DNA of 64,000 nucleotides, taken from NCBI GenBank assembly GCA_013203315.1, contig JABMQJ010000001.1:49179-113178 (forward strand), written 5' to 3'. Both the position numbers and the translations under genes were made by a program. The DNA is from Candidatus Omnitrophota bacterium (lineage in GTDB: Bacteria; Omnitrophota; Gorgyraeia; JABMRN01; RBG-13-46-9). The notes below the pieces were generated by a model. That model saw only the letters and a program-made list of their open reading frames with translations. It made no database searches and was not told where the DNA came from. Each line of letters starts with the position of its first letter. Within the stretch, counting starts at the first letter, position 1. Below are positions 1-49,000 of this stretch, piece after piece.

Positions 1-365
1 TAGGCGGAATAGACTAAGAGAGCTCCGAAAGCTAAGGCCAAAAGACTGATCAGGCGCATGGATAAAATAGGTTTTCCCTGCCACCAGTCAAGATAGGTAT
101 ATATCGATTTTGGTTTTATCACAAGTAAAAGCACACCCTTTATGATCGACCAGATACCAAGTACCTTAATCAGTAATACTATCCTGCACTGCGGGGCAGC
201 AATTAAAAAGACGATACCGAAAAGAAGTGCCAAAATACCGCCGACCTTTAGCCTTTTTTCATTTCTCCAGAACGCAATATATCCTTTTAAAGTATTTTTC
301 CTTACTAAAAAAAGGATTCCAATAACCATAATAATTACACCAAAAAGCCTGACAACCATAACCAT
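1..365 (-). CDS. Small integral membrane protein (~121 aa, about 4 TM); stop codon cut by the window edge
   Basis: Not in the ORF track. Manual translation from ATG at 365 (RBS GGGAGG upstream) gives MVMVVRLFGVIIMVIGILFLV...FGALLVYSA, open to position 3, then TA at the edge. Confidence 0.8.
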   Translation of the reverse strand, partial: MVMVVRLFGVIIMVIGILFLVRKNTLKGYIAFWRNEKRLKVGGILALLFGIVFLIAAPQCRIVLLIKVLGIWSIIKGVLLLVIKPKSIYTYLDWWQGKPILSMRLISLLALAFGALLVYSA

Positions 366-386
366 AAGTACCTCCCTTTTTTACTC

Positions 387-403
387 TTCGACCATTTCAG
401 AAT
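387..403. repeat. Junction motif M copy (TTCGACCATTTCAGAAT)
   Basis: 16/17 match to the copies at 3862-3878 and 9521-9537. Confidence 0.8.
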
Positions 404-442
404 CTGAACTACTGTCTGCTAGCAGGTAGGCTCTACTTTGTC

Positions 443-937
443 TTAAAACCCAAGAAACATTAGCCACCTGGCACGCCTTCCCAGTAAATCAGCTCGTTCA
501 ACCCTGTTAATATCTCGCAGTAATTTATCACGCGTTTCCGTTATGCCACGTTCAGTAATTTTTAGCTTCTCATATTCTATTCCGCCGGCTTTAATAAACT
601 CAACGGCTTTCTGCAATTCTCCTTCATCGAAAAACGTCCCATGTTTTTTACACTTATCGACAACAATTCCCGAGTGATGCATGTAGTTTTTGCGCCACAT
701 CAATCTACTACAACGGGGGCATTTGCAATACTTTACTTTTTCCGTACGCCCCAAAGGTTTATATACCTTGTGTAAATCACGTAGCTCACTCACGGTAAAG
801 ACTTCCGGAATTATCTTCAATACCTGTTTTTCTTCGAACTTATCTACCCATACACCTTTACATTTTGGACAAATGTCGGTTTCGATACCGTTTTCCTTGA
901 ACACCTTCATTTCAATATCACATTTGGGACATTTCAT
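443..937 (-). CDS. Double zinc-ribbon (zf-TFIIB-like) protein
   Basis: Two CPxC...DxCxx(C/H)xG modules: CPKC..ICPKCKGVWVD and CPRC..DKCKKHGTFFD. Confidence 0.8.
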   Translation of the reverse strand: MKCPKCDIEMKVFKENGIETDICPKCKGVWVDKFEEKQVLKIIPEVFTVSELRDLHKVYKPLGRTEKVKYCKCPRCSRLMWRKNYMHHSGIVVDKCKKHGTFFDEGELQKAVEFIKAGGIEYEKLKITERGITETRDKLLRDINRVERADLLGRRARWLMFLGF

Positions 938-1010
938 TTTCCTCTCCTATATAAACTTCTCCCTGCCTATTTAAAATCGCGGACGTTATAAAGCTACCGC
1001 CGGGACAGGC

Positions 1011-1676
1011 CTAAGATCGTGCTTTGCCCCGCCCCATACCTTCCCGGAGGCCAACCACCAGAAATAACATTCCGACTATCTGGATAAGATGAAAAATACC
1101 GTTGTTATCAAATTTCCAAATAAGCCGGGCAGCAATATCCTTGTTAGCTTGAAAAATTGCGGCGATGATTGTGAAGAGAACCCCGATCGCTATTAATCCG
1201 GCGCCGCCGAGTCGCTTTCGCAAGGCCAACCAGCTGTAAGCGATCAAAACAAAGGTCATGGTAATTGCCTCGTAAATAATAAAAACCAGAAAAGTTCTCG
1301 GAAAAAGCAGGTTCACCGCGTAAAAGGCTACCCCAATCGCAAGCATGACCGGAAGCATCCGACGGACAGCAGCGCGGCCCAGCATGTCGTAGATGGCCCC
1401 AAGGATAAATAAAACAACCACGAAACCCAATGCCAAAAAGAGTGGTTGCCACAGAATATTCTCTAATGCCTCGGACATTTTAAGGCCATGCAGTAATGCC
1501 CCCGATGCGGACGAAAAGGTGACCAGCCCAAAGAACCATGACCAGATATTTGTTCTCTGCATATCACGCTGCTTGGTTCGGCGCAGGTAAAAGAGGCAAG
1601 CCGCGGCAACTAAGGCTAAAACCGCATCTGTCACGGCTGTCGTTTGCTCTATTGGTATATTAGTGATTTCCAGCAT
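1011..1676 (-). CDS. Multi-pass membrane protein of unknown function
   Basis: 221 aa with about 7 hydrophobic segments; C-terminal FDNNGIFHLIQ motif. Confidence 0.75.
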   Translation of the reverse strand: MLEITNIPIEQTTAVTDAVLALVAAACLFYLRRTKQRDMQRTNIWSWFFGLVTFSSASGALLHGLKMSEALENILWQPLFLALGFVVVLFILGAIYDMLGRAAVRRMLPVMLAIGVAFYAVNLLFPRTFLVFIIYEAITMTFVLIAYSWLALRKRLGGAGLIAIGVLFTIIAAIFQANKDIAARLIWKFDNNGIFHLIQIVGMLFLVVGLREGMGRGKARS

Positions 1677-1712
1677 TAAATTCGTAACCTTAGACCGTTT
1701 TCGATAAAATGA

Positions 1713-2351
1713 TTATCTATCTATCAGTTTACTGACCGTCTCCATGCAATGATTCACAATCTCTTTAATAATATTTAACATATCAAGATATCGGACCTTT
1801 GCCCATTCATCACAAATTCCCTTTGCTGACCTATCTATATGGTTAAGGCGACTTTTTTCTATTAATGCGTAGAGGGATGATTTATTTTTTAAAATATTTT
1901 TGCCTAACTTCCTATCATTAGTCTTCACCGCCACAATTGTAACTGACAAAATCTCTTCTATATTGTTACATAGCTCCTTATATTCTTGCAATGCTTTGTC
2001 ACTAAATAACAATTTTTCACTAACTTTATACTCAATTCGTTCTACTAAATCTACACATAGATCTCCCATCCTCTTAATTGCGCCGATAATGCTTACCAAA
2101 TCAATGACTATTTTTTTAGCTTTGCCTGATGATTTCTTTTTGGAAATTTCGATTGCTAAGGTAGTTAAATTAGTATAAGCTTCATTAATTTTTGTTTCAT
2201 TCTTAAGCACCTGATCTAAGAGCTTGATATCGTTCTTCATCAAACCATTAAAGTTAGTACGAAACATTATTTGAACCCGTTCTAACATTTCTATGGTCTC
2301 TTGTCTTAATGAAGCTATTTTTCTTAATTCAGCTTTATTTAATTTGGCCAT
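1713..2351 (-). CDS. Stand-alone PhoU-like helical protein (resembles the C-terminal region of Na/Pi cotransporters)
   Basis: All-helical; motifs KRMGD, FSDKALQE, HIDR..KGIC, YLDML. Confidence 0.65.
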   Translation of the reverse strand: MAKLNKAELRKIASLRQETIEMLERVQIMFRTNFNGLMKNDIKLLDQVLKNETKINEAYTNLTTLAIEISKKKSSGKAKKIVIDLVSIIGAIKRMGDLCVDLVERIEYKVSEKLLFSDKALQEYKELCNNIEEILSVTIVAVKTNDRKLGKNILKNKSSLYALIEKSRLNHIDRSAKGICDEWAKVRYLDMLNIIKEIVNHCMETVSKLIDR

Positions 2352-2365
2352 AGTTTTACTCCCTC

Positions 2366-2382
2366 TTTTACCGTCTCAGAAT
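2366..2382. repeat. Junction motif M, degenerate copy (TTTTACCGTCTCAGAAT)
   Basis: 14/17 match to consensus, same orientation, in the 5' region of the PhoU-like gene. Confidence 0.6.
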
Positions 2383-2404
2383 CTAAAACCTGCCTACTAC
2401 TAAT

Positions 2405-2433
2405 ATTGTAGGCTTGGCGTTGTTCAAAGTCAA
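2405..2433 (-). promoter_or_regulatory. Sigma70-type promoter of the PhoU-like gene
   Basis: TTGACT-N17-TACAAT on the minus strand. Confidence 0.6.
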
Positions 2434-2449
2434 GGGGCAAAAAAGTGAC

Positions 2450-2565
2450 ATTTTTGCGGGTACTGCCCTACGGAATGAGAGGGTATTGGCGTGCGGCTTG
2501 GCATTTAACGACGGAGCCCTGCCAATACCCTCTCATTCCGTTGATTGGCAGGGACTCGCAAAAAT
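2450..2565. repeat. ~116 bp nested inverted-repeat element (MITE/REPIN-like)
   Basis: Perfect 21 bp IR 2470-2490/2521-2541; outer 11/12 IR 2450-2461/2554-2565; left half recurs at 63921-63971. Confidence 0.8.
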
Positions 2566-2641
2566 ATGCTTTTATATTGAGGGGTTTTTTGTTATAATTT
2601 TAGTCATTCAAACCGATAAACTATCAAGAAGGAGGAAATCA

Positions 2642-3298
2642 ATGAAGATATTAATTTTAATAGTAGCGATGTGCATGATGGCAGCGAATGTGTTTGCCGA
2701 GGGGGATATGGCAACGCAGGCAAGTCCTTCGGTGACGATAAAACTTCCGACGCCCGAGACGAGCGGAGGCAAACCGTTGATGCAGGCGCTGAAAGATAGA
2801 AAATCGAGTAGAAACTTTAGTGACAAGGAGTTACCACAGCAGGTATTATCCGACCTTTTGTGGGCAGCGTTCGGCATAAACAGGCCGGATTCAGGAATGC
2901 GCACGGCACCCACAGCGCATAATATGCAGGAAATCTATATTTTTGTGGCAATGTCCAAAGGCCTTTATCTTTATGAACCAAAGCAGCATATATTGAAGCT
3001 GATGCTAGCCGAAGATATACGCGCTGTAACCGGTATGCAGGAGTTTGTGGCAACAGCACCGGTGAACCTTATCTATGTGGCGGAATATTCCAAGATGGCC
3101 AATATAGGCAGTGAGAAAGACTTTTACTCAGCTACAGACACCGGATTTATTTCTCAGAATGTATATTTATATTGCGCATCGAAGGGCCTGGCAACAGTCG
3201 TACGCGGCTGGGTAGACAGGAAAGCTCTGGGAAAAGCAATGAACCTACGCCCCGACCAGAAGATAATCCTTGCCCAGACGGTCGGGTACGAAAAATAA
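2642..3298 (+). CDS. SagB/ThcOx-type nitroreductase family protein with predicted signal peptide
   Basis: Start moved from the track (2414) to ATG 2642 after RBS AGGAGG; motifs LMQALKDRKSSR, RTAPTA, DTGFISQNVYL. Confidence 0.85.
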   Translation: MKILILIVAMCMMAANVFAEGDMATQASPSVTIKLPTPETSGGKPLMQALKDRKSSRNFSDKELPQQVLSDLLWAAFGINRPDSGMRTAPTAHNMQEIYIFVAMSKGLYLYEPKQHILKLMLAEDIRAVTGMQEFVATAPVNLIYVAEYSKMANIGSEKDFYSATDTGFISQNVYLYCASKGLATVVRGWVDRKALGKAMNLRPDQKIILAQTVGYEK

Positions 3299-3316
3299 CG
3301 AAGAGTTATTCACAGG

Positions 3317-3345
3317 GCAGGGCGCTCTTGGGGGTGCCCTGCTTG
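3317..3345. repeat. GC-rich hairpin B between convergent genes (terminator-like), duplicated at 8893-8918
   Basis: Stem GCAGGGCGC/GTGCCCTGC; 3320-3345 matches 8893-8918 at 25/26 nt. Confidence 0.75.
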
Positions 3346-3846
3346 CTATAGCACGCCTTTACCCTCTAGATATTCCTCGTAATAATCAGTTACTTTTCTG
3401 TTTTTCGTTGCGCTAAACGACTTATCCGCATGCATGGCCGGTTTATTGGCATGTTTTTTGGTTTTTTGCAAGAATGTTGGGTATTCAACCCGCGCACCGT
3501 GCACGCGAGAGCCATTTCGTACCCGGTTATCATGCGATATGACAGTTATGCTAGATGGCTCCTTCGAATTCTTCACCATGCTTATTATGCGATCATCCGC
3601 TGCTTCTTTGGCGCGCGTAAAAACGCAGTCAATGCCGCCTATCTTTGTGCGGGAATAATCCATAAAGTCGACATCCCTCCCGTCAAATACTATAATAATT
3701 TCCGCATTAACACGGCTACGCTTCCATCCCGCCACATGCATTGCCAGGGCGCTCCTGGCTTCGGCAAGGCTTTCCTTAAGCTTCGCCGTGAGCTCCGAAA
3801 TCCGGTAAATAACGTTATATCCGTCTAGTATAAATATCTTTTTCAT
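3346..3846 (-). CDS. NYN-domain (YacP/Rae1-like) putative ribonuclease
   Basis: Acidic NYN motifs ILDGYNV, IVFDG, AADD, VISHD. Confidence 0.85.
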   Translation of the reverse strand: MKKIFILDGYNVIYRISELTAKLKESLAEARSALAMHVAGWKRSRVNAEIIIVFDGRDVDFMDYSRTKIGGIDCVFTRAKEAADDRIISMVKNSKEPSSITVISHDNRVRNGSRVHGARVEYPTFLQKTKKHANKPAMHADKSFSATKNRKVTDYYEEYLEGKGVL

Positions 3847-3859
3847 ATCCGTGAGTTAT

Positions 3860-3878
3860 CTTTCGACCGTTTCAGAAT
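3860..3878. repeat. Junction motif M copy (CTTTCGACCGTTTCAGAAT)
   Basis: 19/19 identical to 9519-9537. Confidence 0.9.
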
Positions 3879-3907
3879 TTGGGCTCAACGCAGAACAGTG
3901 TATTTAA

Positions 3908-3936
3908 ATTATACCCCTAAAATAGAAACGCCTCAA
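3908..3936 (-). promoter_or_regulatory. Sigma70-type promoter of the NYN gene
   Basis: TTGAGG-N17-TATAAT; near-identical copy at 13993-14021. Confidence 0.6.
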
Positions 3937-3953
3937 GGAAAACCTTGAGGCGT
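3928..3953 (-). terminator. Rho-independent terminator
   Basis: 11 bp stem ACGCCTCAAGG/CCTTGAGGCGT, 4 nt loop, T-rich tail on the minus strand. Confidence 0.75.
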
Positions 3954-3978
3954 CACGGTACACTGTTTCGTTCAAATT

Positions 3979-4806
3979 TTATTCTATATCCTCGTCTTTC
4001 CCGTTAATGAATTGCAACATGGATGCTCTGTTTTTTTGAATACGGTTTGCAATAAGTTTCAGGGACCCTTCGTCTAACTCCGGTTTTTCTGTCTCGGTTT
4101 CGGATTGCGCGGGTGTTTCTGTAATCTTGGTGGTTACTGCAATTGTGCAACCCGTGTTACGAGACGCCTCGAGATCGCTTGAAAAAAAGTTAACCATATA
4201 CGGCTTAGGGTCGTGGTACACAATCGTCTGAACAAGCCAAGCGTCTTCATACCACATTTCACCCTTATCAAGAGGTTCTCCCGGCTGTGGCAGATGTGGC
4301 TGATTATATACAATTAACTGGACAAGCCGGCCATCCTTATAGTTATACTCGGGATAACCGTCTATTTCGCTGGGATCTATCGGAAGGTACTCCCTTATAT
4401 CCATATTGGGAAACTTCAGGTCCACCGGGTATTTTTCGTATTCTTTTTTTGGTATCAACGGTTCTCTGGGCAACTCTATTATCCTGGCAATCGGGTTTTC
4501 TAAGCCTGGCTTCGGAGCCAAACCGCGTACGGGATCGGACCCTATGTCTTTATTAGGGTATTTAATTATCTCGAAACCCTTTTCGGGCAGCTCGATATTA
4601 TCCCCTATTTCTTTTTTCACGATCAACTCTTTTTTCGTTTCTAGCACTTCCTTAAACTGTTTCACGGATCTGCTCGGAATTTCTTTGAGTTCTTTATCTT
4701 TATATGCATTCGCTTTGCCTTTTTCGGCAAGGCAAGGACTCTGAGAAACCACAATACCCAAACAGATTACGAGCACGATAACCTTAATTGTCATTCTGCC
4801 ATTCAT
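3979..4806 (-). CDS. Secreted Pro/Lys/Glu-rich hypothetical protein
   Basis: 275 aa with N-terminal signal peptide; no recognisable domain. Confidence 0.65.
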   Translation of the reverse strand: MNGRMTIKVIVLVICLGIVVSQSPCLAEKGKANAYKDKELKEIPSRSVKQFKEVLETKKELIVKKEIGDNIELPEKGFEIIKYPNKDIGSDPVRGLAPKPGLENPIARIIELPREPLIPKKEYEKYPVDLKFPNMDIREYLPIDPSEIDGYPEYNYKDGRLVQLIVYNQPHLPQPGEPLDKGEMWYEDAWLVQTIVYHDPKPYMVNFFSSDLEASRNTGCTIAVTTKITETPAQSETETEKPELDEGSLKLIANRIQKNRASMLQFINGKDEDIE

Positions 4807-4887
4807 TTCATTTACCCCCTTCTTGCTTACGGTTTTTAAAACTCTTTACTTTCGTGTCAAAAAAATAACTCGAATCTCATACTCTAT

Positions 4888-4912
4888 AACAAAATCACAG
4901 CTTGTTTACTCC
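4888..4912 (-). promoter_or_regulatory. Candidate ECF promoter GGAGT-N16-TGTT
   Basis: Same boxes and spacing upstream of the ECF sigma gene (6975-6999). Confidence 0.5.
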
Positions 4913-4936
4913 TGTTATTTTCTGACTATTTTATTC

Positions 4937-6370
4937 TTAATTTTGCTTACTTCTTATCATTTGAGCTTCAGGGCTTCTCGGGTATTTTCGTAATACAAGC
5001 GCATAATAGTGCTCTGCTTCCTTTGTATTATTCAGTCTTTCTTCATATATAATTCCCGTAGCATACAGTGCCATGCTTGCAAACGTAGACTCGGGATATT
5101 TACGAGAGACCTTTTGGAAAGTCTCTATCGCTTTCTCGGACATGCCAAGATAGTTGTAATAGGCACCTATAAAAAGGAAGATCTGTGGCTTATGGCCCAA
5201 ACTCGGATGCATGGCCATTATCGCTTCCAGCGTCCTAATTCCCTGCAAGTGTTTACTTCTGTCCTTTGTCTTTATCGCATTGTCTATTAACTCAATCGCC
5301 TTCCTAAGGTCAAGAGCGGCTTCTTTCGGCTCGAGGTCAGATATATATAATGGGGCGGGCCTTAAGAGCTCTCTTGTCCTGTATTTTCCATTACTGATTA
5401 AAAGCGCAACCTGGACTTTCTCTCCGATTTCATAGAACTCCGTCATTTCCTGCCATTCTTTTTCCAATAGCTGGCGCGGGGCCATGGGTGCCTCCCCCTT
5501 AAATACTTCTGTTGCCTCCCCGCCACCTAGTATTACCTGCTGCTGTTTAAGCGCTCCTTCTGGTATGAATGTTGACACAACCTTTACCCTGCCGTTTAAT
5601 ACACCAAGCCGCGTCATCATTGAGGGCTGTGCGGAAACATCTACTAAAAAATCAGTTCCCAGCGCCGTGGCTGTGGCTTCGGGAGTTGCCATGACAAAAC
5701 GTGACCCCTTGAATTTTTTGCTTAAACGCACCAGCGTTTTACCTTTTTTGAGGTTGTATACTGTCTTGCCGGGCACATATTTTGGCAATAACTTCGCTAT
5801 TTTTATTTCAGAATTCTGCTTAATCCTGACCCTGTATTTATTTGTATGCGCTATGTCAACAAAAGATCCACTGTCAACGGTTAGCGTATCGTTCTTGCCG
5901 AGTAGTAGCCCTTTGGTTCCTTTGGCCCACTTACGCCCCCTATGACTGTAAATCATTACTTTGCCCTTTACCGTCACAATCTGTACGGGCTGGACCACTA
6001 AATATGTAAGAACCCCGTATGCCGACACAAACAAAAGGAGCGTTACGACAACCCTTGCAAGCATGGGCGCAGGCAGGACAAAGACTTCCCGGGTTCTTTG
6101 AAGAACGCGAGTTACAATGAAACCTATCCTGTTTTCTTCCCTGCTTTTTAAAGTGTTACGCAGTTTTTGATTGAAGGCCCGGTCGAAAGAGGTAGACAGC
6201 TTTTCTCTATCCGCATGCCTAATGACCAGATTCGAATTCTTTAATAAAAGGGCTGTTTTCCTGCAGGATTCGCACTCGCTAAGATGGCTCTCTACCCTTT
6301 CCCTTTCAGGGAGAGAGCACCTCTGATCTATATATCTCGATAATAATTCGAAAGGCATTTTGTGCTTCAT
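4937..6370 (-). CDS. Anti-sigma factor: zf-HC2 + TM + FecR-like + TPR
   Basis: HLSECESC (HxxxCxxC), one TM, TPEATATALGTDF FecR motif, C-terminal TPRs (KYPESTFA, KYPRSPEA). Confidence 0.85.
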   Translation of the reverse strand: MKHKMPFELLSRYIDQRCSLPERERVESHLSECESCRKTALLLKNSNLVIRHADREKLSTSFDRAFNQKLRNTLKSREENRIGFIVTRVLQRTREVFVLPAPMLARVVVTLLLFVSAYGVLTYLVVQPVQIVTVKGKVMIYSHRGRKWAKGTKGLLLGKNDTLTVDSGSFVDIAHTNKYRVRIKQNSEIKIAKLLPKYVPGKTVYNLKKGKTLVRLSKKFKGSRFVMATPEATATALGTDFLVDVSAQPSMMTRLGVLNGRVKVVSTFIPEGALKQQQVILGGGEATEVFKGEAPMAPRQLLEKEWQEMTEFYEIGEKVQVALLISNGKYRTRELLRPAPLYISDLEPKEAALDLRKAIELIDNAIKTKDRSKHLQGIRTLEAIMAMHPSLGHKPQIFLFIGAYYNYLGMSEKAIETFQKVSRKYPESTFASMALYATGIIYEERLNNTKEAEHYYALVLRKYPRSPEAQMIRSKQN

Positions 6371-6954
6371 TTTACGCCACTTTTTTGCGGAATTTTAATT
6401 TTCTTTATAAACTGTTTCCGTGCCCTTGCAAGCCGCGAAGAAATTGTCTTCATATTTGTTTTCAGCACTTTGGCTGCCTCTTCGTAAGAAAGGCCTTCTA
6501 TTACGCAGAGCGCAATGACATCCCTGTAAAGCGGATGAAGGCTTTTCAGGGCATTTTCTATCGCTTCCTTGAGTTCCTTATTTTTCACGAAGGAATCTGC
6601 CGAAAACCCGTCTTTCGTCAATACGCCTTCGAGGTTGATATCCATGTCCCCTTTTCCCGCTCGACCGGACAAAGATACCTGCCGCATCGAACTCCTTTTC
6701 TTTAATTCGTTTTTTGCCAGATTCGAAGCTATTGTATAAATCCAGGCCTTAAAAAGCCCCCTGGGCTCGTATCTATTGATGTTAAGGTATATGTTTATAA
6801 AAACTTCCTGCGTAAGCTCTTCGGCAACCGCCCTATCGCCTATCTTTCTGTTGATGAAATTAAATATTCTTTCCTTGTACGCATTATACAATTCATCAAA
6901 GCAGGCCCGGTCGCCTTCCCTGAATTTCCTTACCAGGGCATCGTCTTTATTCAT
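6367..6954 (-). CDS. ECF sigma factor
   Basis: Region 2 AEELTQEVF, FKAWIYTIA; region 4 GLSYEEAA..SRLARAR; start moved to ATG 6954 (MNKDD) after GAGAGGG. Confidence 0.92.
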   Translation of the reverse strand: MNKDDALVRKFREGDRACFDELYNAYKERIFNFINRKIGDRAVAEELTQEVFINIYLNINRYEPRGLFKAWIYTIASNLAKNELKKRSSMRQVSLSGRAGKGDMDINLEGVLTKDGFSADSFVKNKELKEAIENALKSLHPLYRDVIALCVIEGLSYEEAAKVLKTNMKTISSRLARARKQFIKKIKIPQKSGVK

Positions 6955-6974
6955 TACCCTCTCTATATATATTA

Positions 6975-6999
6975 AACAATATTTTGTGCCGAAAACTCC
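6975..6999 (-). promoter_or_regulatory. Candidate autoregulatory ECF promoter GGAGT-N16-TGTT
   Basis: Matches 4888-4912. Confidence 0.5.
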
Positions 7000-7042
7000 A
7001 CGTTCTATAGACATTCTGTATCAGCTTGCTTTTTTTGTCAAT

Positions 7043-7083
7043 AAAAAAAACGGGACTGGTTTTTACCAAATCCCGTTTTTTTT
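7043..7083. terminator. Bidirectional Rho-independent terminator
   Basis: A8-CGGGA..TGGT/ACCA..TCCCG-T8. Confidence 0.8.
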
Positions 7084-7112
7084 GTTATCTGCGATTTAAC
7101 GCTGATTGTTAC

Positions 7113-8666
7113 TTATTCATCTTCCTCTTCGCTTCCTGTCTCATCTTCGGCATCGTATGAGCTGAAGGCCTCCAGGAGAATTATGGCGCCTTTACCGCCT
7201 GAATAAACAGCACCCGGCGTTTCCCGGAGAATACCTTTAAATGCTTCCTGCAACTTATTTTTGTGCTGCATCCATTCGTTTTCCAACAACGAAATCTTGT
7301 TAACCCGGCCTGTGTTGAAGTTTTTTGCGAAATCCATTTTTGCGGCAGGTACTTTTCCGCGTGTCCCAAACTTTTCGGCTTTTTCAAAAAGATTATTTGG
7401 CTTTGATGCGGATCCCCCCTCCTGTATCGGGCTTTGGTTTTTGCCGGTCTTATAGGCGTAAATCGGTTGCGCTTCATATGCTGCTTTTTGATCTTCGATA
7501 ACCTGTGGCTTATACAATTTAATATCTACGCTTTCGGTTCGCTCATCGTTTAATTTTCCGGCAATCTTTTGCTTGGTAACATTGAGGCCAACGAAAATTT
7601 CCTTTATTTCTGTTATTCTTCCGGGCTCTACGCCGGGTGGCCGCGTATATGTTACTGCTATTGTCCAATCATCATTGGTAATGGTAAGGGTGTATCCTCC
7701 GCCGTAAGCTGATTCTGACAAGCTCAAAACAGTATCTCCAAACTGTTGCGGCATGGGTTGTCCCCAATAGTTTCTGGCAAACCACACCAGTATGACTCCT
7801 AAAAGCTCGCGCATTTCACCGTCCATGCGGGATACGCCAAAACCGCTACTTTCCGGGCCTTCATACCGCGAATACCAGCCCCCGTGAGGCAGCCTATAAA
7901 AGTTTCTGTATTCTTCTATATCATCCAAATCATTGAACTCGCCATCCCCGTTTGTATCAAGGAGATTCTTTGCGAGTTCGTCCAAAAAGTCTCGTAAATC
8001 CTCGTCGATTTGACGCTGAAAAAGTTCGGCGAAGGATTCTTCAACGGGATCCCTTGCATCAACGGGATCCCTTGCATCAATAATAATAAGCTTGCTGTTT
8101 TCGTCGTCCCACTTAATCGTAAAACCATCACCGATCGGTATCTTCATAGAGACACCTTCGTCTTTCTCTTTATCCCCGTCCGGATCTCCGTTATTACCTT
8201 TAAGCGCTTCGAGCGCGCTTTCAAGATCTCTTAATCTAATATCTAATTTTTCACGAATATCTTTTTCCGAATCGTCATCCTGATATATACTGATTATATC
8301 TTCCAGAATATCCGAGAGCCCCTTGCTTGGCAGTCCCTTGTTTAGCAGATTTTCGATCTCTTTATTCAGCAAGCCTTTGTATGTTTCAAGGATTTTTGGC
8401 AAAGGCGGATCATTCTTCGGCTTTATCGTTATGGACAAGTTATCTCTGGATTTCTCAGAGAGACTATTTTTCAATTCCAGGTACTGACTCACCAGGGCTT
8501 CCCGTTGGGGGTTATATACAGCGACAATCTTGCCGGAAACCTTTGCCTTGGGCTTCTCCGAAATGCTTTTTGCGTGCGCAAAATCACAGGGAAGCGTCGA
8601 AGAGACAAAAGCCACCACCACTGACATCGCTAAAATCCTATTAAATATTCTTTTCCTGTTTAACAC
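7113..8666 (-). CDS. Large secreted hypothetical protein with an EF-hand/dockerin-like Ca-binding loop
   Basis: GTG start after GGAG; signal peptide ending AHA; DTNGDGEFNDLD loop; acidic tail. Confidence 0.7.
   Translation of the reverse strand: MLNRKRIFNRILAMSVVVAFVSSTLPCDFAHAKSISEKPKAKVSGKIVAVYNPQREALVSQYLELKNSLSEKSRDNLSITIKPKNDPPLPKILETYKGLLNKEIENLLNKGLPSKGLSDILEDIISIYQDDDSEKDIREKLDIRLRDLESALEALKGNNGDPDGDKEKDEGVSMKIPIGDGFTIKWDDENSKLIIIDARDPVDARDPVEESFAELFQRQIDEDLRDFLDELAKNLLDTNGDGEFNDLDDIEEYRNFYRLPHGGWYSRYEGPESSGFGVSRMDGEMRELLGVILVWFARNYWGQPMPQQFGDTVLSLSESAYGGGYTLTITNDDWTIAVTYTRPPGVEPGRITEIKEIFVGLNVTKQKIAGKLNDERTESVDIKLYKPQVIEDQKAAYEAQPIYAYKTGKNQSPIQEGGSASKPNNLFEKAEKFGTRGKVPAAKMDFAKNFNTGRVNKISLLENEWMQHKNKLQEAFKGILRETPGAVYSGGKGAIILLEAFSSYDAEDETGSEEEDE
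8041..8080. repeat. 18 bp in-frame tandem duplication
   Basis: TCAACGGGATCCCTTGCA x2, encoding DARDPV twice. Confidence 0.9.
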
Positions 8667-8721
8667 TTTTTTAACTCCGTTCTAAAGTGGGTAAAAAAAA
8701 TACCCCTCACACACGGTGTGC

Positions 8722-8735
8722 CTTGTATATACAAG
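8722..8735. promoter_or_regulatory. Perfect palindrome CTTGTATATACAAG, GntR/HutC-like operator
   Basis: Abuts and overlaps an extended -10 (TGGTACACT) on the minus strand upstream of the 517 aa gene. Confidence 0.5.
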
Positions 8736-8892
8736 TGTACCATAAATTAAAGGGTCTTGTGGGGGGAAATATCTTACTTTTTTATAGCCTAACAAGGTTA
8801 AGTGGCATTAGGAATTATTCTAGGGACGGTTCTCGCTAAGTCTTTTATTTACAGTTGGTTGCGGATTGCTTCATCTACTCTTGTACCGTTTC

Positions 8893-8918
8893 GGGCGCTC
8901 TTGGGGGTGTCCTGCTTG
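8893..8918. repeat. Second, truncated copy of hairpin B
   Basis: 25/26 identical to 3320-3345; directly abuts a partial M-like motif at 8876-8892. Confidence 0.8.
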
Positions 8919-8919
8919 T

Positions 8920-9153
8920 TCACTTCCCCTTTGACCCTCTAATTGCCCAGAGGATAAGACGGATAAGTAAATAGACGGGGTATCCGAGAAGCATAAACAT
9001 GAACGCGAATGTGACTATTTGCTGACCGGCTTGTTCACCAACTATTGCAAACTCGGTCATACGCAGGGCAAATATGACAATTGCGGATATGACCACGATG
9101 CCGAGCAATATGAGCCCTTCCTTCTTTATGATTTTTTTTATACCATCTTTCAT
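8920..9153 (-). CDS. Small 2-TM membrane protein (77 aa)
   Basis: Two hydrophobic segments, basic ends, GGAG RBS. Confidence 0.65.
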   Translation of the reverse strand: MKDGIKKIIKKEGLILLGIVVISAIVIFALRMTEFAIVGEQAGQQIVTFAFMFMLLGYPVYLLIRLILWAIRGSKGK

Positions 9154-9166
9154 CCAGACATCTCCT

Positions 9167-9240
9167 TGCCTGCCGGCAGGCAGACTTTAATTAGGCCCCA
9201 GGGACAGTTCTTAATCTGTCCCTTGCCTGAACCGTTCCTA
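9167..9240. repeat. Cluster of REP-like palindromes
   Basis: TGCCTGCCGGCAGGCA (9167-9182), AGGGACAG-N8-CTGTCCCT (9200-9223), GAACCGTTCCTA (9229-9240). Confidence 0.75.
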
Positions 9241-9255
9241 TTTTCAATTTTTGAC

Positions 9256-9483
9256 TTACAGCTCGAACTTGCTTTTATCTACTCTCGCGGTTTTAGAAAA
9301 TTTTTCTTTAACACCATCCAGAGTATCCTGGAGAGCCTTAAATATTTTCTCCACCTCTTCCGGCGTGGATTCGTAACCGGCACCCGATAAATTACCCAAC
9401 AGTTCTATCTTCTTTATCGCATTCGTTACCCTCTGCGTCGCGAGTCTTTTAAACTTATCATGTTTGCTTTCAGATTCTGCCAT
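9256..9483 (-). CDS. Small helical hypothetical protein (75 aa)
   Basis: Strong RBS AGGAGG; KFKRLA..RV..AI..I.LLGNLS...Y motif. Confidence 0.75.
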   Translation of the reverse strand: MAESESKHDKFKRLATQRVTNAIKKIELLGNLSGAGYESTPEEVEKIFKALQDTLDGVKEKFSKTARVDKSKFEL

Positions 9484-9518
9484 ATTTTCCTCCTTTTTTT
9501 AAAATCGTTATTGTTTAG

Positions 9519-9537
9519 CTTTCGACCGTTTCAGAAT
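9519..9537. repeat. Junction motif M copy
   Basis: 19/19 identical to 3860-3878. Confidence 0.9.
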
Positions 9538-9563
9538 CCGGAAATTCTTATCAGCTCGTGCAT
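9531..9563 (-). pseudogene. Orphan gene start / 10 aa mini-ORF MHELIRISGF
   Basis: AGGAGG RBS and ATG right after the upstream stop; the TGA lies inside motif M. Confidence 0.45.
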
Positions 9564-9576
9564 ATCTTCCTCCTAT

Positions 9577-10089
9577 CTAATTTTCGGTTACATGCTCGAT
9601 TACGCTGCTTTTTGCGATGTCACCCGGGGATGTAGTGTCTGCTGTCGGGACTTCTGGGACTATGTCGAGCCCGCCGGAGTTGAAAGCCTCGTAGCAGAGC
9701 TCCGAACAGAAATAATCTTTATCCTTTTGCCACGTATTGGCGATATCTTCAAAGGGGAGTTTAAGCTTTGAGAGAAGTTTTAAAAAACCCAGAAAAAATA
9801 CGCCAAGGTAGTCATATTTATTGTTTAACGCGTCTACTAAATACGATATTGTGTTGTTTATATCAAAGCTATGCCCTTCTTTTATTCTATAAACATCATA
9901 GCCCTGTTTTATTTTCCTTATATCACGGGCCCTTACGCCGCCTTTTGTTATCGCTTCTATCACAAGATTCATTTCCGGGGATACACAAACAGCGACGTGT
10001 GAATATTTACTACCAGTTCCCCACTGTATGATCTTAGATATCCCGTCTTCTCCTTCAAATAAAAGTATATCGCCGGTTTTCATCTGCAT
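9577..10089 (-). CDS. Permuted papain-like NlpC/P60 (YiiX/YebB-like) cysteine hydrolase
   Basis: GDILLF, YSHVA (His), YDY, YFCSEL (Cys) in permuted order. Confidence 0.85.
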   Translation of the reverse strand: MQMKTGDILLFEGEDGISKIIQWGTGSKYSHVAVCVSPEMNLVIEAITKGGVRARDIRKIKQGYDVYRIKEGHSFDINNTISYLVDALNNKYDYLGVFFLGFLKLLSKLKLPFEDIANTWQKDKDYFCSELCYEAFNSGGLDIVPEVPTADTTSPGDIAKSSVIEHVTEN

Positions 10090-10091
10090 AA

Positions 10092-10757
10092 TTAAAACAA
10101 TAGTTTTATTTTTGTGCCCAGCACGTTATAGCTTATCCAATGCTTGGACTTCTTGCTGAATTGCCAGAGATAAAATACGTCCAGGCTTAAGTTTTTTATG
10201 ATTTTAAAGTTGGCGCCTGCGTAGAGCCTGTTTCTGTTTAGTTCGCCCGCATCGAAATCAACAAATACCTCATCAGCTACATACGGCGTAAATTTAAACT
10301 GGTCTAGTTCCAGCGGATACCCCACCGTAAATTTATTTCTATAGCGCCACTTGGTGTTGGAATTTTCGGGCATTCTCCACTCCAACCTACCACGATTACT
10401 CAACGAAAAACCATCTGTCTTATGTTTAAGCGTGGCATTAAAGTGCGGCCTGTTTTCATATTCCCAACCGTTACTTCCCTCTTCAAAAGCCAAGCGATAG
10501 TTAACCCCTACATCGAGCCATTCGGCGAGACCCGCATACGTTACCCCTACATCAGAATGCTGATAATAAAAATCGCTTACGCCGTCTCCGAACCGAAATT
10601 CTTCTTCTACTTTTATTTTCCAGTCCTCATTTATTTTATATGATATATTTTCCGTGTTCCAATACTGAAAATCACCGTCATCAAAAGCAAAACATGCGCC
10701 TGATAAAAACAATATTACAGTTAAAGCAACAAAGAAAATCTTTCCCCGATTCGACAT
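10092..10757 (-). CDS. Outer-membrane beta-barrel protein (DUF2490-like)
   Basis: Signal peptide, alternating beta-strand pattern, ENRP, RYRN, NRLYAG, terminal Phe. Confidence 0.8.
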   Translation of the reverse strand: MSNRGKIFFVALTVILFLSGACFAFDDGDFQYWNTENISYKINEDWKIKVEEEFRFGDGVSDFYYQHSDVGVTYAGLAEWLDVGVNYRLAFEEGSNGWEYENRPHFNATLKHKTDGFSLSNRGRLEWRMPENSNTKWRYRNKFTVGYPLELDQFKFTPYVADEVFVDFDAGELNRNRLYAGANFKIIKNLSLDVFYLWQFSKKSKHWISYNVLGTKIKLLF

Positions 10758-10774
10758 TTTCTCCAGTTTCCTCC

Positions 10775-11992
10775 TTATTTTAGTTCGTATAAAAATACCT
10801 TATCGTTACGACGGGCCTTGAAGGGTAGCTTTATACCCACCCGGTCGCCTTTTTTCGCGGAATCCACGGGGATTTCGTCTTTGTGCATTTCATCTATTTT
10901 CGCAACTCTGGCGGGGGTGGTTTTTCCGCAAATTAATACGTTCTGGCCTTTCTTGATGCCATTATCTATTACAGATACTCCCGCAACATTCACTTTGTTG
11001 TAGAAATTAATAACCTTTCCCACAAAAAGCTTATTGTAGGCGCTCTGCCCCTTTTTGCTGCCGGTATCATTGGGTTGCGAGAAGAAGAAGCCGTCTGTAA
11101 AACCCCTGTTATACGTAAGCGAGAGCCTAATTTTAAGCGCTTTTTTACTTTTCGGGTCAAGCTTGCCGGCGAAAAAAGAATCTATCGCTTCCCTGTAAAC
11201 GGCAGTAACCTCCCCCACGTATTCGGCCGAACGCATACGGCCTTCTATCTTAAAAGCGCTTATACCGGACTCTATTAGTTTATCAATAAACTCAATAGTG
11301 CACAAATCCTTTGTGCTCAACACGTAATCGGTACCTAAAACGTAATCGTTTTCTTTATCTCTGGTATCTTTGATTAAAAATGCGCGCCTGCACGGCTGGA
11401 GGCACATGCCGCGGTTTGCTGATTTTGAAAATGAAGCGTGCGAAAGAAAACATCTGCCGGATATGCTGACGCATAAGGCCCCGTGGATAAAAGTTTCTAT
11501 TTCACAATCCAATTTTTCTTTCTTTACATTTTTAATTATTTCTTTTATATCCGAAAGATTGCACTCCCTGGCAAGAACGATTCTTTTTACGCCTTGGGAA
11601 TGGTAAAATTTGAGCGCGGTGAAATTGGCGACACTTGCCTGTGTTGAGAGGTGGGTTTTTAGTTTCAGGTCTTTTGCGTATTGTAGTGCCGCCATGTCCC
11701 AGAGCATGACAGCGTCAACATTGGCTTTCTTGGCATTTTCTAAAATTTTCTTTATCTTTTTCATGTCGCTATTATACATGATGGTATTAAGCGCAAGATA
11801 ACCCTTCTTCCCGTTATCGTGAAGACGCGACATTACCTTTTTTATTTCGAGCATATCAAAATTAGCGGCCCAGTGCCGCATGTTTAAATTCTTTATGCCG
11901 AAATATACGCTATCTGCGCCGGCTTCTATCGCCGTATTTAAAGCGCACCAATCCCCTGCCGGGGATATTAGTTCCGGTTTTTTGTGCTTCAT
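10775..11992 (-). CDS. Peptidase U32 family Fe-S protein (TrhP/RlhA-like RNA hydroxylation)
   Basis: PELISPAG, GADSVY, HGALCVSISGRC, NRGMCLQPCR, KIEGR. Confidence 0.9.
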   Translation of the reverse strand: MKHKKPELISPAGDWCALNTAIEAGADSVYFGIKNLNMRHWAANFDMLEIKKVMSRLHDNGKKGYLALNTIMYNSDMKKIKKILENAKKANVDAVMLWDMAALQYAKDLKLKTHLSTQASVANFTALKFYHSQGVKRIVLARECNLSDIKEIIKNVKKEKLDCEIETFIHGALCVSISGRCFLSHASFSKSANRGMCLQPCRRAFLIKDTRDKENDYVLGTDYVLSTKDLCTIEFIDKLIESGISAFKIEGRMRSAEYVGEVTAVYREAIDSFFAGKLDPKSKKALKIRLSLTYNRGFTDGFFFSQPNDTGSKKGQSAYNKLFVGKVINFYNKVNVAGVSVIDNGIKKGQNVLICGKTTPARVAKIDEMHKDEIPVDSAKKGDRVGIKLPFKARRNDKVFLYELK

Positions 11993-35894: not shown

Positions 35895-36653
35895 CTACCT
35901 CTTTTCAGCTACCGGAATTTTTATTGTTTCTTTTATCGTGTTTAGCAATACATTATCTTTTAGCTCGAAAACAGATTTATTATTTATAGCCGCATCTTCG
36001 ATTTCGGCGTTTTGCGGCAAAACTATTTTTAAATTGAGTCCCACTTTATCTATTTCTGCCCGGAGTGGACCCAGATCACCTTTGGATTTATTTAAAATCA
36101 GGGAGCGCTCTTTAGTTTTCACTTTCAATTCATCTACGAGTTTTGAAATTCTTGCCGCGGCCCTTATCCCGATAACGGAGCTATCACTTATCATGAAAAG
36201 CCTGTCAATATCGCGAACCAGGCGCCTGGAAAGATGCTCCATGCCGGCTTCGTTATCAATAACAACGTGGGAGTAGTTTTTCATGAGCTTGGTGATAAGC
36301 GCGCGGAGCATGTTATTAACGAAACAATAGCATCCCGGCCCTTCTGGACGACCCATGCTTAAAAGGTCGAAGCCATCTTCTTCGTTTAGAGATTCCTGAA
36401 CTTTTAAATTTATGAACCTATCCTTGGTCATGCCTTTCGGAACCTGGTCCGGGTCCTTGGAGATGTCGTCTATAATATCTACAATGGTTGATATGTCTTT
36501 CACGCCCAACAATTCTCCGAGATTTGAGTTGGGATCCGCGTCAATGGCCAGAATTGAGCCGGCATTCTCTTCCTTAAGCGCCCTTATAACCAAAGACGCA
36601 AACGTTGTCTTCCCCGTTCCGCCTTTGCCCGCTATTGCTATTATGTTACTCAT
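35895..36653 (-). CDS. acsF: CooC/AcsF-type nickel-insertion ATPase
   Basis: GKGGTGKT, GPGCYC, DNEAGMEH. Confidence 0.88.
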   Translation of the reverse strand: MSNIIAIAGKGGTGKTTFASLVIRALKEENAGSILAIDADPNSNLGELLGVKDISTIVDIIDDISKDPDQVPKGMTKDRFINLKVQESLNEEDGFDLLSMGRPEGPGCYCFVNNMLRALITKLMKNYSHVVIDNEAGMEHLSRRLVRDIDRLFMISDSSVIGIRAAARISKLVDELKVKTKERSLILNKSKGDLGPLRAEIDKVGLNLKIVLPQNAEIEDAAINNKSVFELKDNVLLNTIKETIKIPVAEKR

Positions 36654-46657: not shown

Positions 46658-47517
46658 ATTTTGTTCTGCAGCTTAAAAGCACTTACGACGTTTCGTAGGA
46701 GCATTGTTACCGTGAGCGGGCCTACGCCGCCGGGTACGGGTGTAATAAACTCAGCCTTTTCTTTTGCCTTCTCGAACTCTACGTCGCCTACGAGTTTACC
46801 GTCAACCCTGTTAATCCCTACATCTATAACTATAGCGCCTTCTTTTACCCAGTCACCCTTAACAATCCCTGCCTTGCCGACAGCGACTACTAAAATTTCC
46901 GCTTTCTTTACATGCTCGGGCAAAACACCGCGCTCGCCTGTTGCGATATGGCAAACGGTAGTAGTGACAAACTTGTTTAAGAGCAGAAGCGAAAGCGGCT
47001 TTCCAACGATTTCTGAATGTCCGACAATCACGGCTTCCTTACCGTAGAGCTTCACTCCGCTGGACTCTATAAGCTCCATCGCTGCCTGTGCCGTGCAGGG
47101 AGCAAGCTTCGCATCGCCCAAAAGCACGTGGCCCAGGTTTTCCGGGTGCATACCCTCGGCATCTTTCCCCGGAGCAATGCTACTCATAACCAGCTTATGG
47201 TCTACGCCTTTCGGAAGCGGGAGTTGGACGATTATGCCCGATACACTTTTATCCTGATTTAATTTTTGTATCTCCCCTATTAAAGCGTCCTCGGTCATGC
47301 CGGCGTCGAGTGTCTTTAATTCATACTCGATCCCTAAGTTTTCGGCGTTTTTCTTTTGCGATTTTATATAAACTGCTGATGCCGCGTTCTCGCCTACCTG
47401 GATACTGACAAGCTTTGGCGTTTTACCGGTTTTTTGCTTTAAAGACTCGATTTCTTTTTTTAAGCCTTCTTTTATCTTACCGGCAATAGTTTTTCCTTCT
47501 AATAGCTTTGCACTCAT
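46654..47517 (-). CDS. folD: Methylene-THF dehydrogenase (FolD family)
   Basis: IVQLPLP, PCT, IVGKP, DVGIN, TPVPGGVGP. Confidence 0.93.
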   Translation of the reverse strand: MSAKLLEGKTIAGKIKEGLKKEIESLKQKTGKTPKLVSIQVGENAASAVYIKSQKKNAENLGIEYELKTLDAGMTEDALIGEIQKLNQDKSVSGIIVQLPLPKGVDHKLVMSSIAPGKDAEGMHPENLGHVLLGDAKLAPCTAQAAMELIESSGVKLYGKEAVIVGHSEIVGKPLSLLLLNKFVTTTVCHIATGERGVLPEHVKKAEILVVAVGKAGIVKGDWVKEGAIVIDVGINRVDGKLVGDVEFEKAKEKAEFITPVPGGVGPLTVTMLLRNVVSAFKLQNKI

Positions 47518-48392: not shown

Positions 48393-49000
48393 TTTATCCC
48401 CTCCTCTACCCCTTTTGCTACCTCTTGGTCAATTTTATTTATTTCCTCCCGCATCGACATAAGGTTCTCCCTTACAGCGTGCGCAAGCGTCTTATCTTTT
48501 ATGCTTTTAAGGTTTATTTCTACATTGAGAAGCGCTGAGCCGAATGCGCAGTCAAGCATGAGGGCAGCGTCACCCACGTCTGTTATTAAATTTTTGTTGC
48601 CCTTCTTGCAAAGCGATAAACATAGCTCAAAAGCCTTGTTAACAGTCTGGCAAACTTCGAAAGGCACCTGCATTGCTTCTTTTAAGGCCGCCTTTAGCTT
48701 TTTAGCACGCACTTCCCCTTTTGGCATTTTGAAAACTTTTGAAAGTTTTTTGTACGCTTTTGCGTCGTCCGAGCAGAGTTTCATGAATTCACCGCGCAGG
48801 GCCTCGGCGCAATTTAAAACGTCTTTCATTTCGTCTTCGACGCCCCTATACTTTTCCTTACCTATTGTAAAGTTTGCGACTTTGCTTAAAAGCGCTGCCC
48901 CTACCGCACCGACAAGCGCCGCTGCGCTTCCGCCTCCGGGGATGGGTGACTTCGACGCCAGTTCTTTCAGGTATTTATTTATTGTTCCTTTACCGTACAT
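48389..49000 (-). CDS. fchA: Methenyl-THF cyclohydrolase (FTCD-C family)
   Basis: PIPGGGSAAA, GNKNLITD, NVEINL. Confidence 0.88.
   Translation of the reverse strand: MYGKGTINKYLKELASKSPIPGGGSAAALVGAVGAALLSKVANFTIGKEKYRGVEDEMKDVLNCAEALRGEFMKLCSDDAKAYKKLSKVFKMPKGEVRAKKLKAALKEAMQVPFEVCQTVNKAFELCLSLCKKGNKNLITDVGDAALMLDCAFGSALLNVEINLKSIKDKTLAHAVRENLMSMREEINKIDQEVAKGVEEGIK

Follow-up and report, generated by a model that had tools for sequence, protein, structure and literature searches.

What kind of element is a short sequence that recurs at the junctions between unrelated genes? The question is raised by a 64-kb stretch of DNA from a Candidatus Omnitrophota genome (hereafter the window; C1:49179-113178 of genome G000, a 1.5-Mb assembly in 32 contigs), in which a first-pass annotation had described a non-palindromic motif of 17-19 bp and had offered three explanations for it, namely the scar of an undescribed gene-cassette system, a relic insertion sequence (IS) end, or a protein-binding site in 5' untranslated regions (UTRs). 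With a probability of roughly 0.72, the 17-mer is the outer terminus of an arm of a small non-autonomous repeat family, tied to a Y1/HUH transposase of the 'TIRYT/TIRtron' kind that resembles the REP-associated tyrosine transposases (RAYTs; REP, repetitive extragenic palindromic sequence). The suggestion of a relic IS end was essentially right, the motif being the terminal part both of the arms around the RAYT-like gene and of doublets that resemble REPINs (REP doublets forming hairpins).

When the whole window was searched for the 17-mer with up to three mismatches and compared with 100 shuffles, five matches were found against 0.33 expected by chance, a number reached in none of the shuffles (0/100). 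Four of these matches (two exact, one with a single mismatch and one with three; Table 1) are the main sites previously reported and share one strand, the minus strand; the fifth (36355-36371, three mismatches) is intragenic, lies on the opposite strand and looks like a chance match. The sequence agrees with the reported identity of 3860-3878 and 9519-9537 over 19 bp. The open reading frames (ORFs) that neighbour the copies in this zone are, every one, on the minus strand as well, and the motif therefore reads ATTCTGAAACGGTCGAA. Its distance from the gene that follows had been put at 14-35 nt and measures 14-37 nt for the four window copies. Two weaker variants that had been added to the list were not recovered by the 17-mer scan, the one at 8876-8892 being only a marginal half match to the profile and the one at 1691-1707 giving no profile match at E <= 10.

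In the genome-wide scan, three further copies were located just left of the window (C1:49120-49136, 48619-48635 and 47004-47020), and 17-mers with at most one mismatch were confined to C1:48619-58715, all on the minus strand. A genome search with a 39-nt profile picked up the last of the three (as C1:46997-47033) and one more copy, truncated where contig C6 begins. The total is eight tail copies, so called here because they keep roughly the distal 30 nt of the arm described below, and seven of them fall within a single cluster of 11.7 kb, for which the rough bound on the chance probability is 1e-11. All seven zone copies stand between ORFs, where the preceding gene is 39-259 nt away and the start that follows is 14-94 nt downstream; six of them end 14-37 nt before the start codon and the seventh 94 nt before it. 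The copy at the left edge of the window is alike over ~50 nt to the one at C1:46997-47034. The absence of the motif from the 10-64 kb core, as first stated, holds for the window but is incomplete for the genome, where there are copies left of the window, the copy on C6 and diverged full-length arms on six other contigs.

These diverged arms are the longer forms of the same sequence. A profile built from the full elements of 14 relatives detected arms in G000 on contigs C24, C19, C10, C3/C9, C2, C5 and C18. At four loci two arms are joined head to head in doublets of ~135 bp, which end in TGTACCGTTT...AAACGGTACA, have unrelated flanks and fold as near-perfect hairpins (three of them, folded as DNA, gave -50.3, -56.1 and -50.5 kcal/mol, with z from -15.4 to -16.3). 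The arms on C24 end in AAATCTGAAACGGTACAA, which matches the 17-mer at 14 of 17 positions, and the 17-mer can for this reason be placed at the outer tip of one arm. Its description as non-palindromic is correct for the 17-mer alone, but elsewhere in the genome the same sequence is the arm tip of a long palindromic doublet. The tail-only copies form no significant hairpins: folded as DNA together with 55 nt upstream, the seven in the zone give z values of -2.1 to +1.1 versus shuffles. Altogether the family is represented in G000 by two gene-flanking arms, four doublets, two single arms and eight tail-only fragments, that is ~20 arms in 1.5 Mb, and the 32-contig assembly may miss some copies.

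The two gene-flanking arms connect the family to a transposase. There are two Y1 genes in G000, and the protein encoded by one of them (C18:80273-80764; Pfam Y1_Tnp 67.8 bits, cut-off 23) finds its best NCBIfam model in REP_Tyr_transpos (75.5 bits, just below the cut-off of 80) versus 29.6 bits for IS200 (cut-off 55). NHVHLL and YIEENPVRA, representing the HUH motif and the catalytic tyrosine, are visible by eye in its translation, and this RAYT-like gene is the single copy of its type in the genome. A repeat search identified inverted arms on both of its sides (three overlapping repeat pairs: I1, 19 nt and 89% complementary; I2, 23 nt and 74%; I3, 22 nt and 77%), at 1337-1397 and 1928-1998 of the extracted locus L146, with the equivalent of the 17-mer outermost and the right arm overlapping the last codons of the gene. 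These last codons and the 3' flank align end to end with the element of a relative (score 48 versus 12.8 +/- 2.0 in shuffles, z 17.3), and in the alignment the 17-mer falls opposite ATTCAAAATCGCAAACGTTACAA. The arm is ~60 nt long, with a head box GGG(G/T)ACA(C/G) and a tail ...GAAACGGT(C/A)(G/T/C)AA. Read by eye, the heads are GGGGACAC on C2, GGGACACC/AGGGACAC on C24, C3, C19 and C10, and GGGTACAC on C18; the fit to a GGGGWSAS box is 8/8 positions in the C2 copy and 7/8 in most others.

The second Y1 gene, on C25, is IS200-like and has no arm of the 17-mer family nearby. IS200/IS605 elements have the Y1/HUH fold (Pfam Y1_Tnp) in common with the RAYT-like protein and presumably also the recognition of single-stranded hairpins. 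They are not known to have terminal inverted repeats, carry subterminal hairpins and occur as multiple identical gene copies, whereas the C18 gene is single-copy, has ~60-nt inverted arms and stays well under the IS200 cut-off. The RAYT-like and IS200-like genes of this genome share a conserved stretch just upstream of their starts (ATGCAGCAAAA ... GTTGTCTATATATATGAGGGGTG; C18:80225-80272 and C25:111780-111830).

Related genomes were searched with R1, a model built on sequence alone from the motif with its flanks. Among 61 genomes, matches were obtained in 9 of the 13 from the same taxonomic family and, weakly, in 4/4 from the sister family, while 5 of 43 other genomes of the class gave matches at E 0.004-0.035 only; the relatives carry one to seven copies per genome. 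The repeat family is apparently limited to one Omnitrophota family. Among 185,579 species genomes, from which the own genome and its nearest kin may have been excluded, the 17-mer gave at least 119 single matches in unrelated taxa, here estimated to be the chance level, and the inner-arm pattern gave eight single matches, again in unrelated taxa. The element of the relatives, ~60-70 nt long, starts with GGG(G/T)ACA..T(C/T)TAAGTTCA, continues with CAGGTTGAA and ends with TTCTGAAACGGTC(T/G)AA. It is found directly 3' of the C-terminal remnant of a Y1 transposase (...DYKWSSYKERC...RVQV*) in G003:C55 and fused to a RAYT-like N-terminal remnant in G011:C33; in G004:C9 an exact 17-mer lies ~90 nt past an intact RAYT-like homologue, and inverted arm pairs are also present in G012 and G010. 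In G001, a genome of the same genus as G000 with shared genes 87-95% identical, the 3' flank of the RAYT-like gene (C2, 190-290 of locus L221) contains a 38-nt unit, the arm terminus included, that is duplicated in tandem. Y1 genes in general (COG1943-type) were matched in 51 of the 61 genomes of the class, with up to 10 per genome, and in many of them the stop codon is immediately followed by a GTCCCC/GACCCC box, which is the reverse complement of the GGGG(A/T)C head box.

Elements of this kind have a precedent. RAYT-like genes lying between long terminal inverted repeats (TIRs) instead of GTAG REPs were termed 'TIRtrons', encoding 'TIRYT' proteins, by Di Nocera, De Gregorio & Rocco (2013; PMC3733652), and in the sections of that paper drawn on here many TIRs are said to carry a GGGGWSAS box and sometimes to overlap the end of the ORF, with moderately abundant TIR families that form dimers or clusters. 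As far as those sections go, the Omnitrophota family is alike in four respects: its Y1/HUH gene is RAYT-like and bounded by long inverted repeats, the gene-proximal arm end fits GGGGWSAS at 7-8 of 8 positions, the right arm runs into the 3' end of the ORF, and moderately abundant arms occur as singles, dimers and clusters (PMC3733652). It differs in its lineage and in its arm sequence, the TIR letters having been compared by description only, and, relative to the same sections, in that most zone copies are truncated tails fused to GC palindromes, in one orientation and at consecutive gene junctions. The junction repeat is probably a TIRtron/TIRYT-type family with a new lineage and arm sequence, a kind of element that was already described.

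A single copy and repeated flanking sequence are the mark of RAYTs in the part of Bertels et al. 2017 considered (PMC5581495), and both are found for the C18 gene, though the copy number of the repeat is low. Further parallels with REPIN-RAYT systems (Bertels & Rainey 2011, PMC3116915; Bertels et al. 2017) are a single-copy transposase flanked by the repeat that it is thought to mobilise, a presumed mobile unit in the form of a head-to-head doublet folding into a long hairpin, decaying singlets, an extragenic location and restriction to one lineage. In contrast to GTAG-type REPs, which are self-palindromic units of 20-40 nt with an unpaired GTAG (or CGTC) tag, the arms are ~60 nt long and not self-complementary, and no conserved GTAG tag is seen in the alignments; the score of the C18 protein with the NCBIfam RAYT model, just under the cut-off, is another difference. 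In the literature searched, no paper was found that joins Omnitrophota with repetitive extragenic palindromic sequences.

The doublets, with their terminal inverted repeats, also look like miniature inverted-repeat transposable elements (MITEs), and the tails could be terminal remnants of an ordinary IS or a DDE-type MITE unrelated to the Y1 gene, the likeness to the Y1 flanks having arisen by chance insertion. Among the explanations weighed here this is the least credible, as inverted arms lie on both sides of the Y1 gene and one of them reaches into its coding sequence, and three other genomes have arms attached to remnants of this gene. In addition, no target-site duplication is visible by eye at the four doublets, and apart from the two genomic Y1 genes no other transposase domain was detected, the survey covering the 23 ORFs of the zone and not a genome-wide scan for other families. 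No clean empty site for the doublets was found in G001, where their flanks are 867 nt apart, on different contigs or represented by one flank only; the doublets occupy different loci in the two genomes.

Table 1. Copies of the junction repeat and associated features (window coordinates unless a contig of G000 is given)
Feature	Position	Strand	Score or basis	Context
Solo tail copy E_a	9513..9551 (17-mer 9521-9537, exact)	-	R1 27.2 bits, E 3.6e-6; fold z +0.3	37 nt 5' of ATG at 9483; between C92-peptidase-like ORF (9577-10089) and 75-aa ORF (9256-9483); no hairpin precedes it
Solo tail copy E_b	3854..3892 (17-mer 3862-3878, exact)	-	R1 32 bits	15 nt 5' of NYN_YacP ORF start (ATG at 3846)
Degenerate tail copy E_c	2358..2396 (17-mer 2366-2382, 3 mismatches)	-	R1 23 bits	14 nt 5' of PhoU-domain ORF start (ATG at 2351)
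Tail copy E_d	379..432 (17-mer 387-403, 1 mismatch)	-	R1 31.1 bits; fold z +0.5	21 nt 5' of 121-aa membrane ORF start (ATG at 365); short palindrome (412-431) 5' of tail
Marginal half copy (GAAACGGTACAAGAG)	8874..8892	-	nhmmer E 4.4, without statistical support	27 nt past stop of 77-aa ORF; 209 nt from next start
Possible decayed relic with AAACGGTCTAA, the core of the relatives' copies	1691..1707	-	no profile match	14 nt 5' of DUF6962 ORF start
GC palindrome CCTGCCGGCAGG without tail	9160..9183	.		directly 5' of Shine-Dalgarno (SD) sequence/ATG of 77-aa ORF
Head-to-head doublet	C24:18702-18839		profile match	
Head-to-head doublet	C19:3892-4042		profile match	
Head-to-head doublet	C10:19380-19517		profile match	
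Head-to-head doublet	C3:49756-49884, running into C9:21-84		profile match	
Single arm	C2:6093-6171		profile match	
Single arm	C5:56606-56658		profile match	

The genes that the tails separate are small and unrelated. Pfam domains in the 23 ORFs around the zone include tautomerase, lipoproteins, an RF-1 domain, Zn-ribbon, DUF6962, PhoU, nitroreductase, NYN_YacP, an extracytoplasmic function (ECF) sigma/anti-sigma pair and C92 peptidase. In five copies, outside the window or at its edge, the tail is preceded by and fused to a GC palindrome (type CCTGCC..GGCAGG), and in G011 a palindrome of this type lies inside an otherwise full arm. Such palindromes, CCTGCC(N0-12)GGCAGG, also occur alone at four other loci (9160-9183 in the window, and C14:1658, C18:105889 and C19:2773 in G000), each time directly 5' of the ribosome-binding site and start codon. 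One of the genes behind them resembles ribosomal protein L35 by eye and the genes are otherwise unrelated; the palindromes may be 5' stem-loops or a further small repeat family. Two other repeats share the zone with the tails. A terminator-like hairpin repeat, GGGC.C....AAGAG.GCCC, recurs just past the stop codons of unrelated zone genes (window 3305-3345 and 8893-8925; ~10270-10300 and ~10770-10800 of locus L001). A separate repeat of ~170 nt, whose ends are inverted (ACGGAATGAGAGGGTATTGGCG...), interrupts the assembly at 15 or more contig ends of G000 and at both ends of G001:C45 (L141); the nitroreductase gene and the PhoU promoter have a short hairpin version of it between them (2461-2540), and at 2470-2520 the contigs of four runs break off or branch.

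Whether the tails regulate the genes behind them was a natural question, as all seven zone copies are oriented like the downstream gene and six of them end at a short and similar distance from its start. According to this reading, the genes that follow would be co-regulated through a cis-acting element in their 5' leaders, whether bound by a protein or small RNA, processed by an RNase or belonging to an alternative-sigma promoter. Two copies lie downstream of promoter-like boxes: TTGAGG-17-TATAAT (3908-3936) in the case of E_b, which also has a terminator-like hairpin (3927-3954) ahead of it, and TTGACT-17-TACAAT (2405-2433) in the case of E_c. The zone encodes the ECF sigma/anti-sigma pair and the NYN RNase, and about 9 of 19 copies in relatives have a start on the same strand within 76 nt. 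Nevertheless, such a role is unlikely. The downstream genes are unrelated both within the genome and across genera; among the 19 copies in relatives, only the two G001 orthologues are followed by ORFs that match zone genes, and about seven lack any plausible gene downstream. Copies also decay at orthologous sites inside one genus. Three sites carry copies in both G000 and G001 (downstream of the lipoprotein gene, at PhoU and at the 75-aa gene), and the lipoprotein-gene copy is identical in the two genomes, the G001 counterpart of E_c at PhoU has further changes and a 1-nt deletion, and the copy at the 75-aa gene has 3 of 17 positions changed.

Nor did structure or known motifs speak for a leader element. 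No consensus structure was returned by RNAalifold for 14 elements of relatives (energy 0.0), no Rfam 15 family reached its gathering score in the window, and an E-value scan of seven loci with copies yielded one chance-level match only (E 0.61). Promoter-like and terminator-like sequences showed no enrichment in window positions 1-10200 (25 and 13, versus 20.8 and 11.1 in shuffles). Promoter readings for sigma-70, sigma-54, sigma-28 and ECF factors were rejected by eye against consensus sequences, which their spacing or hexamers did not fit, and a regulon reading was dropped since the downstream genes in relatives are unrelated or missing. A one-directional leader also fails to explain why the sequence forms the arms of palindromic doublets and stands inverted on both sides of a transposase gene. 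The proposal of a protein-binding site in the 5' UTR found no support, in view of unrelated or missing downstream genes, decay at orthologous sites and the lack of a consensus structure. The spacing of 14-37 nt to start codons is attributed instead to very short intergenic gaps and co-directional genes, not to shared regulation.

The arrangement of the zone genes differs between strains, and many of the differences are close to tails. The sigma/anti-sigma/lipoprotein block keeps its G000 order in G001:C45, but there the PhoU and NYN genes lie on its other side, in reversed order and in front of the 75-aa gene, and a Memo/AMMECR1 gene stands in the place taken by NYN in G000. Among ~8 ends of homology blocks between the two genomes, four are within 21 nt of a copy in either genome; two of these are at E_b, where the two genomes cease to be homologous just beyond the 17-mer's 3' end. 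One other end is at another repeat family, one is beside the possible relic at 1691-1707 and two are at no repeat. In G001:C45 (L141, 12060-12125) ~14 codons from the beginning of the 77-aa gene precede the NYN gene, at a junction that illegitimate recombination produced and that is not at a repeat. Further joints were collected from other samples, in assembled contigs of 90-95% identical relatives rather than in reads. None of the nine runs found was listed as holding RNA. The joint 379->2393 skips the PhoU, DUF6962 and Zn-ribbon genes and ends beside two copies, 9500->3346 and 3852->1712 correspond to a G001-like order, and 9504->3347, with 15 letters between, is a variant without the 17-mer; 426->9167, with only 23 letters on one side, was set aside. 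The expectation that breakpoints of gene gain and loss fall in the motif is borne out for about half of the G000/G001 block ends, which are at or next to copies, but at least three of the ~8 are at no copy. As a raw count, the association of breakpoints with copies is suggestive.

These rearrangements bring back the idea of a cassette system, in which integrons are the obvious comparison. The zone is like an integron in having short repeats between small, unrelated, co-directional genes whose order varies between strains. The attC sites of integrons are imperfect palindromes with R''/R' cores (RYYYAAC ... GTTRRRY). By contrast, the tails show no R''-L''/L'-R' imperfect palindrome or GTTRRRY core by eye and fold no better than shuffles, in keeping with the earlier remark that the motif does not fit attC; there is no IntI nearby or on contig C1, and the repeat is related to the arms of a Y1 transposase. 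The search for a co-occurring recombinase or transposase gave no such domain in any of the 23 ORFs around the zone, and the three tyrosine recombinases of the genome (Phage_integrase) are on C25, C17 and C2. Together with rearrangement breakpoints that lie away from any copy, these results count against an undescribed gene-cassette system. No tRNA genes that could be island borders were found in C1:36001-65178.

A variant of the cassette idea would dispense with an integrase, the solo tails being active and serving as minimal recognition sites for a Y1/HUH enzyme that, in trans and on single-stranded DNA, cuts out the genes between two tails and inserts them again. If this were true, the 12-kb zone would be an integrase-free, single-strand-DNA analogue of an integron cassette array, and this would account for the clustering of the tails on one strand and for the reshuffling between strains. 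Several observations are in its favor: the unrelated small genes on one strand, each preceded by a tail; the other neighbours and order of NYN, PhoU and the 75-aa gene in G001; the joint 379->2393, which leaves out exactly the set of three genes lying between two tails; the end of homology just past the 17-mer at E_b; and a genome that encodes a RAYT-like enzyme with its own arms ending in related sequence. It is nonetheless very improbable, as the zone copies lack the hairpin known to be required by Y1 enzymes and are decaying between orthologous sites, several junctions are not at a tail (the G001 NYN gene, for instance, is joined inside the remnant of another gene), and no recombinase adjoins the zone. 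Moreover, no circular or excised form was seen, in material that consisted of assembled contigs and not reads, and recombination or replication slippage between short direct repeats, requiring no enzyme, explains the same joints.

The preferred explanation, worn termini of a TIRtron-type family, suggests the following course of events. By analogy with TnpA-REP and IS200/IS605, the Y1 transposase would move the hairpin doublets as single-stranded DNA, and the solo tails would be immobile relics of them. Being short direct repeats at gene boundaries, the tails probably serve as recombination substrates, at which the genes between them may be deleted, inserted or reshuffled, so that gene-order breakpoints between close strains would often be at or beside them.

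A number of points weigh against this explanation. The zone copies form a subtype of their own (AGTTCAG + ATTCTGAAAYGGTCGAA), unlike the arms beside the transposase gene of G000, and for this reason no cognate enzyme of the zone subtype is assigned in this genome. Transposition is deduced from sequence, with no observed event, excision product or cleavage site, and the ~20 arms in total are far below the tens to hundreds per genome of classical REP/REPIN families. The one orientation of the seven tails and their clustering in 11.7 kb are left unexplained. At least 3 of the ~8 G000/G001 block ends are at no copy, synteny is broken elsewhere too (NifU, for example, is followed by a different gene in G001), and the letters between both sides of most contig joints are not covered; as some block ends have no copy and synteny is broken at other places, the association with breakpoints is only suggestive. 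Finally, E_b and E_c, lying downstream of promoter-like boxes, are probably transcribed and may have an effect on the mRNA.

At the strength given above, an apparent cassette signal is resolved into a described kind of element. The locus offers a worked example, taken from a phylum that is uncultivated and whose genomes are very small, of how the worn ends of transposase-associated repeats can persist at gene boundaries and coincide with differences in gene order. For annotation, the model of the ~60-nt arm and the 135-bp doublet can be used to mask or track the family in this Omnitrophota family.

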